From a virus (Duplodnaviria; Heunggongvirae; Uroviricota; Caudoviricetes), in the IMG/VR virus record IMGVR_UViG_2565956714_000002, positions 1 through 14,094 of that record: 14,094 nucleotides of DNA; one strand, given 5' to 3'. Under the pieces are notes generated by a model, which worked only from the letters and a program-made list of their open reading frames with translations, did no database searches and had not been told where the DNA came from. This document shows, piece after piece, positions 12,213 to 13,207 of this stretch. The position numbers and the translations under genes were made by a program. Positions within the stretch are counted from its first letter, which is position 1. Every line of letters starts with the position of its first letter.

Positions 12213-13025
12213 GTGACCGTGAGAGCACTACTGACCCCTGAAATTGCCCCGCGTATGGGGATCGTATTGTTCAGGCCAGGTTCAGAGCTGATGCCCCTGT
12301 TTATGCAGGGGCGTGTCCTGCTGGAGCCTGAGCCGGAGCGTTATTCATCTTTCGCCAGTGGTGCCGTTCCGGCGGCATCACAACCGCTGGCGGATGATCC
12401 TGCCGTTCGGGCCGTGTTCCGCAATGAGGCAGTGATCCGTCGTGCTGGTGGCGTGGAATGTCTTGAAAGCTGGTTACTTCGTGAAAAAGGCTGCCAGTGG
12501 CCTCATTCCGACTGGCACAGCGAGAACATGACCACAATGCGACACGCTCCGGGTGCAATCCGTCTGTGCTGGCACTGCGATAACCAGCTGCGCGATCAGT
12601 TCACGGAACGGCTGGAATCAATGGCAACGGATAACTGTGCCCGCTGGGTGTTGTCTGTTGTGCGTCGGGATCTCGGTTTTGATGACAGTCACGTTGTGAC
12701 AATGCCGGAACTGTGCTGGTGGCTGATTCGTAATGATCTGGCGGATGCCTTACCGGAAAGTGCAGCCCGTAAGGCACTGAGATTACCGAAGCCTGTTGTG
12801 CCGTCTGTTACCCGGGAAAGTGACCTTGTGCCTTCGGTTCCTGCCACCAGCATCATCCAGGATAAGGCGAAAAAGGTGCTGGCGCTGAAAGTGGTCCGGA
12901 GTCGCCGGAGTCTTTTATGTTACGCCCAAAACGTCGCCGCTGGGTTAATGAAAAGTACACGCGCTGGGTTAAGACACAGCCGTGTGCATGTTGTGGAAAG
13001 CCAGCTGATGATCCGCATCATCTGA
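12213..13025 (+). CDS. DUF968-like nin-region protein, N-terminal frame (apparently frame-split, see next feature)
   Basis: Coding-looking sequence runs from GTG 12213 to about 12875. The tail beyond that (…[26 protein letters not shown]…) looks like out-of-frame read-through, because the overlapping -1 frame encodes a conserved-looking Cys/His motif. Confidence 0.5.
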   Translation: MTVRALLTPEIAPRMGIVLFRPGSELMPLFMQGRVLLEPEPERYSSFASGAVPAASQPLADDPAVRAVFRNEAVIRRAGGVECLESWLLREKGCQWPHSDWHSENMTTMRHAPGAIRLCWHCDNQLRDQFTERLESMATDNCARWVLSVVRRDLGFDDSHVVTMPELCWWLIRNDLADALPESAARKALRLPKPVVPSVTRESDLVPSVPATSIIQDKAKKVLALKVVRSRRSLLCYAQNVAAGLMKSTRAGLRHSRVHVVESQLMIRII

Positions 13026-13207
13026 TAGGCCATGGTCAGGGTGGAATGGGTACAAAAGCGCATGACCTTTTTGTGCTGCCTTTGTGCAGAAAACACCACG
13101 ACGAACTGCATGCGGATACCGTGGCATTTGAAGAGAAGTATGGCTCCCAGCTGGAGCTGATATTTCGTTTTATCGATCGCGCACTGGCGATTGGTGTGCT
13201 GGCCTGA
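12866..13207 (+). CDS. DUF968-like C-terminal portion with HNH-like Cys/His zinc motif, in the -1 frame relative to the upstream ORF
   Basis: This frame opens at 12866, directly after a TAA at 12863-12865, and encodes [58 protein letters not shown]...CRKHHDELH. The first ATG is at 12917 with a GGAG RBS. Adding one A to the A5 run at 12870-12874 fuses it in frame to 12213, giving about 331 aa. Confidence 0.45.

Follow-up and report, generated by a model that had tools for sequence, protein, structure and literature searches.

The closest described relatives of the gene considered here are YdfU (DUF968) and YbcO (DUF1364, PDB 3g27), which together are assigned to group 7 of the His-Me finger superfamily (PMC5714182). 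The C-terminal extension of the DUF968 family has been described as a zinc-finger HNH motif (PMC4118853). Where a gene of this kind occupies two reading frames, the relevant comparison is with programmed -1 frameshifting as it occurs in E. coli dnaX (A_AAA_AAG) and in IS1 insAB′ (A_AAA_AAC). Bacterial slippery heptamers are defined as X_XXZ_ZZN, and A_AA.G is the most shift-prone A-site tetramer in E. coli (PMC4066793). In the same organism, true heptamers that lack stimulators exceed a background of 0.055% by factors of only 2-10, and tetramers that lack a stimulator yield 0.147% frameshifting against a background of 0.112% (PMC4066793).

The stretch of DNA analysed here (14,094 nucleotides in all, hereafter the window) carries a DUF968/YdfU-family gene that is split near a run of five adenines. 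The gene is very probably an ordinary frameshift pseudogene with a true 1-nt deletion (A, 12894|12895), located downstream of the A run in a sequence of no repetitive character.

Prophage setting and layout of the split gene

The features of the window that bear on the gene are as follows.

1-1254, proA
1369-1444, tRNA-Thr (CGT), between proA and the integrase
after the tRNA, the integrase on the minus strand, then early genes that include the S24 repressor gene (6092-6766)
onward, replication genes, PerC, Dam, RusA, and KilA-N, then DUF968 and Q
12219-12893 (+), N-terminal 225 ancestral codons of the DUF968/YdfU-family gene, with 225 aa 100% identical to 329-aa DUF968 proteins
12869-12875 (+), G AAA AAG, the wild-type codons of Lys218-Lys219, with the same A5 in-frame in intact homologues
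12894-12895 (+), site of the 1-nt deletion, an A lost according to the alignments (“del A”, reference nt 683)
12894-13025 (+), out-of-frame tail of 43 non-homologous residues ending in MIRII, with TGA at 13023-13025
12895-13207 (+), C-terminal 104 ancestral codons, now in the -1 frame, encoding linker and a zinc-binding His-Me finger (HNH-like) predicted nuclease domain
12907-12919 (+), GGAG (12907-12910) and ATG 12917, a possible internal start for a 96-aa ORF (12917-13207)
13225-13341 (+), 5′ stump of the Q antiterminator, about 39 codons, with a PF06530 match on the 47-aa product
13342-14094 (+), IS1 with left inverted repeat GGTGATGCTGCC..., insA, and insB′, running off the end of the window

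The element is a defective, decaying E. coli lambdoid prophage remnant, and the tRNA-Thr gene is its thrW-type attachment site. Positions 4001-14094 of the window are byte-identical to contig KE705258.1 of the E. coli draft genome GCA_000457305.1 (L015), in which the IS1 in Q is directly followed by chromosomal yaiP/yaiS-like genes, tauABCD, and hemB. Since the IS1 adjoins chromosomal genes, the lysis and structural (late) region has been lost, and in a defective remnant of this sort a frameshifted accessory gene is to be expected. Q itself is 384 nt long in phage PhiR29_1, where it is intact. The IS1 is recognized by GGTGATGCTGCCAACTTACTGAT at 13342 and by Zn_ribbon_InsA, HTH_Tnp_IS1, and DDE_Tnp_IS1 Pfam matches on the called genes. 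Its genuine insA-insB′ -1 frameshift motif, TTAAAAAACTC (A_AAA_AAC), lies at 13646-13656, 770 nt downstream of the A-run candidate. A Phage_ASH-family ORF (7649-8485) contains plus-strand Rfam matches to isrK (8009-8085, 63 bits) and to the C4 antisense RNA (8110-8197, 82 bits), and 8009-8197 resembles a c4-like module for immunity or antirepressor control of the P1/P7 type, here in a lambdoid remnant.

Direct reading gives a frame-0 ORF from 12213 to 13025 that encodes 270 aa from GTG 12213 or 268 aa from GTG 12219, the latter being the annotated start in homologues and the former an alternative. Over the A run, at 12867-12878, this frame reads GCG AAA AAG GTG. The preliminary description had the gene divided between this frame and a -1 frame that opens at 12866 behind a TAA at 12863-12865, and this layout holds: the -1 frame is open from there to the TGA at 13205-13207 and carries the Cys/His domain (...CRKHHDELH...). 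Both frames are open across 12866-13025, so the junction cannot be placed from the sequence alone.

The assignment to DUF968 is likewise upheld, as each half gives a match to Pfam PF06147. The match is continuous in the intact protein (residues 160-326, 271.8 bits, cut-off 27.8), while in the window it falls into two parts, profile positions 2-70 (57.6 bits) and 79-171 (180.6 bits), each above the same cut-off of 27.8; positions 2-70 correspond to residues 160-225 of the N-terminal piece. The C-terminal piece, or the 96-aa ORF within it, matches HNHc_6 with 30.3 bits against a cut-off of 26.6. Residues C256, C259, C290, H268, H294, and H298 are invariant among 26 homologues, in keeping with the zinc-binding Cys pairs and the catalytic His of a beta-beta-alpha-metal (HNH) motif. 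A profile of the 96-aa domain searched against the PDB retrieves YbcO (3g27) as its first hit (E = 0.007), followed by IscB HNH domains and McrA, and performs better than phmmer searches with the 96-aa and 329-aa proteins, which return marginal matches only. An AlphaFold (AF2) model has a mean pLDDT of 68 with confident blocks at about 55-190 and 240-329. With this model, Foldseek finds no significant match in the PDB (best E about 0.9-2), and its hits are enriched in Cap5, Cas5-HNH, and IscB. The encoded protein begins with a Cys/His-containing domain, continues through a flexible linker, and ends in a predicted His-Me finger (HNH-like) nuclease domain.

The phage and prophage relatives (YdfU of the Qin prophage, SfII_47, and cdtI orf51) are 96-99.9% identical in nucleotide sequence. 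The window gene shares with them its domain content and its location in the nin region, with the KilA-N gene before it and Q after it. Unlike them, it is one A short, its truncated product keeps the ancestral sequence only up to residue 225, and the nuclease domain has passed into another frame.

Position of the missing base

The break is due to one missing base, as had been supposed. In a megablast search of phage genomes, which matched 73 records (70 with a query coverage of 80% or more), PhiR29_1 ranks first, with 99.9% identity over 996 nt against 995 nt in the window. The best 40 complete E. coli genomes give the same figures (99.9%, 996 nt against 995 nt) and are annotated with a single “DUF968 domain-containing protein”. 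Adding one base to the window gene fuses its frames into 996 nt, or 331 codons from 12213, and the ancestral product has the claimed length of about 329-331 aa.

The base is not missing from the A run, as the preliminary description had proposed. Alignment shows the run to be identical in intact genes (A5, GCGAAAAAGGTG), where it is the wild-type, in-frame state. The A6 form for which homologues were to be inspected arises solely from a synonymous GCG to GCA change that leaves the frame unaltered. The sole difference between the window and its intact homologues is the absence of the A of GTGGATCC, between 12894 and 12895: the homologues have AAAGTGGATCCGGAG and the window AAAGTGG-TCCGGAG. The ancestral GTG GAT CCG has become GTGG-TCCG, in which the Asp226 codon has lost its A, a GGATCC/GATC site has been abolished, and the surroundings are non-repetitive. 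The alignment junction therefore does not fall exactly at the A5 run but 19-20 nt downstream of it.

Conservation around the two positions follows the same pattern. The upstream frame, thought to be coding-like only up to about 12875, is genuine as far as 12893: the six codons that follow the A run in frame 0 (VLALKV, 12876-12893) are conserved in homologues, and alignments of 20 and 26 homologues, with identities down to about 65%, show no variation at D226, P227, E228, and P230. Lys219, the second lysine of the A run, varies between K, T, R, Q, and N across diverse homologues, and two homologues carry an 18-residue insertion directly after it. Amino acid conservation of the upstream frame past 12875 (VLALKV, then D226-P227-E228) is the very observation that the preliminary description had named as contrary to its proposal, so the A5 hypothesis fails by its own standard. 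The model predicts a flexible segment at the lesion (pLDDT < 50 at residues 218-228), which places the deletion in a probable linker. The 43-residue tail that follows has no counterpart in any of the homologues compared.

Competing readings of the split

Programmed -1 ribosomal frameshifting at G AAA AAG (12869-12875), which would fuse the frames into a full-length protein, is exceedingly improbable. The motif does lie in the correct frame within the overlap of two open frames, it contains the shift-prone A_AA.G tetramer (PMC4066793), and the product of such a shift would keep its length and differ in just seven linker residues (VLALKVD to GAGAESG), in or beside the two stretches to which the model gives a pLDDT < 50 (residues 194-205 and 218-228). 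As in dnaX and IS1 insAB′, an A-rich Lys-Lys motif stands in the zero frame and the -1 frame is open downstream. Unlike in those systems, the first base is G and the heptamer is non-canonical, no stimulatory hairpin, pseudoknot, or well-placed Shine-Dalgarno (SD) element accompanies it, and the two-frame layout is not conserved. The suggested near match to a slippery heptamer therefore stands for the A-site tetramer and falls for the P site: the first triplet of G_AA.A_AA.G is non-homogeneous, and GAA has no cognate re-pairing there. Downstream, 12876-12945 folds at -20.6 kcal/mol, no better than shuffled sequences (mean -21.7, z = +0.36), of which 124 out of 200 are equally stable or more so; upstream, the only SD-like elements are weak AGGA/AAGG sequences 2-10 nt before the run. 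The AAAAAG hexamer is unremarkable: its 13 occurrences in the window compare with an expectation of 11.6 ± 3.3. In intact homologues the same motif is in-frame, where a shift is unnecessary, and it is not conserved among the 80 related IMG/VR loci, in which GCG AAA AAG is commonest and GCA AAA AAG, AAA AAT, and other local changes also occur. Nor is third-position (synonymous) variability reduced within 30 nt of the run (0.034 compared with a gene mean of 0.037), and the split is private to one small lineage. Recoding at the A run is thus unsupported by motif, structure, conservation, or distribution, and at most background-level slippage could produce traces of full-length protein with the VLALKVD to GAGAESG replacement.

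Transcriptional slippage in E. coli needs A runs of about nine or more. Slippage of this type on the A run was considered and rejected, as five adenines are too short and the same A5 is in-frame in intact genes. A terminator-like hairpin at 12895-12909 (TCCGGAGTCGCCGGA and GTCTTTTATG) lies inside conserved coding sequence and is not regarded as functional; a consensus hairpin scan gave four matches against 1.5 ± 1.2 in shuffles, which is not clearly above expectation. In some intact homologues (L018, L022, L023, and roughly a dozen further IMG/VR loci), GCA AAA AAG forms a perfect in-frame A_AAA_AAG heptamer. Ribosomes that slipped to the -1 frame at this heptamer would read 24 more codons up to the stop in GGT TAA and release a truncated N-terminal product like that of dnaX; neither structure nor conservation among the IMG/VR loci supports use of this heptamer.

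The missing A could also be an error of sequencing or assembly, with an intact gene in the real organism. This would accord with a single-base indel, with the absence of the allele from all 5,426 complete E. coli genomes, and with the identity of the lost base, which is the A of a GATC (Dam) site, a type of site prone to errors on some sequencing platforms. Against it, two independent sources yield the same 268-aa product, one an NCBI assembly (with its contig in 2 samples) and the other Logan assemblies of SRA runs (SRR785531; contig in 4 samples), the deletion site is not a homopolymer, and a true pseudogene is unsurprising in a neighbourhood that is decaying (IS1 in Q, late region deleted). 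An error is thus very improbable, and the deletion is taken to be a real mutation with a product that is presumably non-functional.

A further reading holds that the split is tolerated and the two halves work apart, the N-terminal domain carrying a junk tail and the C-terminal one being translated from ATG 12917 as a YbcO-like nuclease of 96 aa, which would amount to gene fission. It is compatible with a frameshift pseudogene. The possible internal start and its 96-aa ORF, pointed out previously, do exist: the SD-like GGAG lies 6 nt upstream of the ATG, the corresponding Met234 is nearly invariant among 26 homologues, and the ORF spans the whole His-Me finger module defined by the HNHc_6 match. 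The break falls within the low-confidence linker of the model, and YbcO, the nearest solved relative, is itself a stand-alone 96-aa prophage protein (PMC5714182), encoded in the DLP12 prophage in the case of 3g27 and identical to the ORF in size and fold class. In a metagenomic phage contig (L005), a 96-aa copy that stands alone and is preceded by the same SD accompanies a full-length gene. Yet sequence similarity to YbcO is marginal, and the 96-aa ORF differs from it in being an internal fragment exposed by a frameshift rather than an established gene. ATG 12917 falls within the upstream ORF and is traversed by the ribosomes translating that ORF, and both GGAG and ATG are accounted for by the conserved residues P-E-S...M. 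The deletion allele is recent as well as rare, phage can no longer be produced from the prophage, and the gene belongs to the early-right operon, which would normally be silent under the lysogen repressor, whose S24 gene is intact. Gene callers predict the 96-aa ORF on many contigs with broken genes, and a homologue search with this ORF gave no support for a natural stand-alone family, with many named hits labelled “partial” and most 95-170 aa long. Fission is accordingly unlikely. The L005 copy (2985-3291) has a GCCGGAG SD, lies downstream of a Q-like gene, and starts at a mosaic junction only 16 nt before its ATG.

The deletion lies in a flexible linker, downstream of A_AA.G and upstream of an SD and an ATG, so partial rescue might be possible. 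There is a slim chance that function is partly restored, either by rare -1 slippage at G AAA AAG to a full-length protein with seven altered linker residues or by internal initiation that yields a free 96-aa YbcO-like nuclease; if true, such rescue would represent a natural case of “saviour” decoding, or of gene fission, in a nuclease of prophage origin. By virtue of the C-terminal GGAG and ATG and the flexible break site, some activity could survive.

Distribution and significance of the lesion

Intact genes predominate. Each of the 80 related IMG/VR loci has the gene as one intact ORF, proteins of 329-330 aa are dominant in Escherichia, Shigella, Salmonella, Phytobacter, and Kosakonia, and full-length clusters have 1,892 and 9,520 members compared with few fragment clusters. 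A 91-nt probe across the site hit 2,416 of 5,426 complete E. coli genomes, and the deletion allele was matched at 100% at none of the 3,228 sites. The exact 268-aa frameshift product occurs on only two contig sets, and the two-frame split is conserved in none of the homologues (80 IMG/VR loci and 3,228 E. coli sites). An exact scan for the junction pattern in one-genome-per-species contigs gave zero matches, a count that is uninformative with a single genome per species.

Other broken alleles have their lesions elsewhere, at reference nt 45, 527, 619, 646, 657/658, 702, and 831, in addition to a nonsense codon. Some of these lesions hit homopolymers of the linker that also carries the window deletion. 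The T4 run of TCTTTTATG at reference nt 702 is shortened to T3 in other public alleles (among L009, L012, L014, P0121, P0241, and others). The A run is an indel hotspot in alleles other than that of the window, with A4 in L009 and A7 in L014, and an apparent deletion in L006 is a scaffold gap of Ns. Phage PhiR49_1 (L004) has its own 1-nt deletion at reference nt 831 (GGGTGG to GGG-GG), within the His-Me finger domain. A frameshift in the nuclease domain of this phage suggests that the gene is dispensable for phage propagation. Lesions that are scattered and independent fit repeated random inactivation of a dispensable gene and not a recoding signal.

For the window, the reading as a frameshift pseudogene has the following consequences. 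Ribosomes initiating at GTG 12219 would translate 225 genuine codons and 43 nonsense codons before the stop at 13025, and the nuclease domain would stay untranslated in the -1 frame unless weakly started at ATG 12917. The A5 run, 20 nt upstream of the lesion, would represent normal Lys-Lys codons. Positions 12219-13207 should be annotated as a single DUF968 pseudogene, not as two genes and not as a recoding event. The methodological lesson is that frames overlapping by 160 nt draw the eye to the nearest slippery-looking homopolymer, and that the lesion is located only by comparison with intact homologues, which here points to a non-repetitive GGATCC and identifies A5 as wild type.

The lesion would be one step in the decay, within the nin region, of a remnant that sits at the tRNA-Thr beside proA, in which an IS1 insertion has also disrupted Q and the entire late region is missing. 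Frameshifted accessory genes are routine in IS-ridden prophage remnants, and the present example carries little biological weight.
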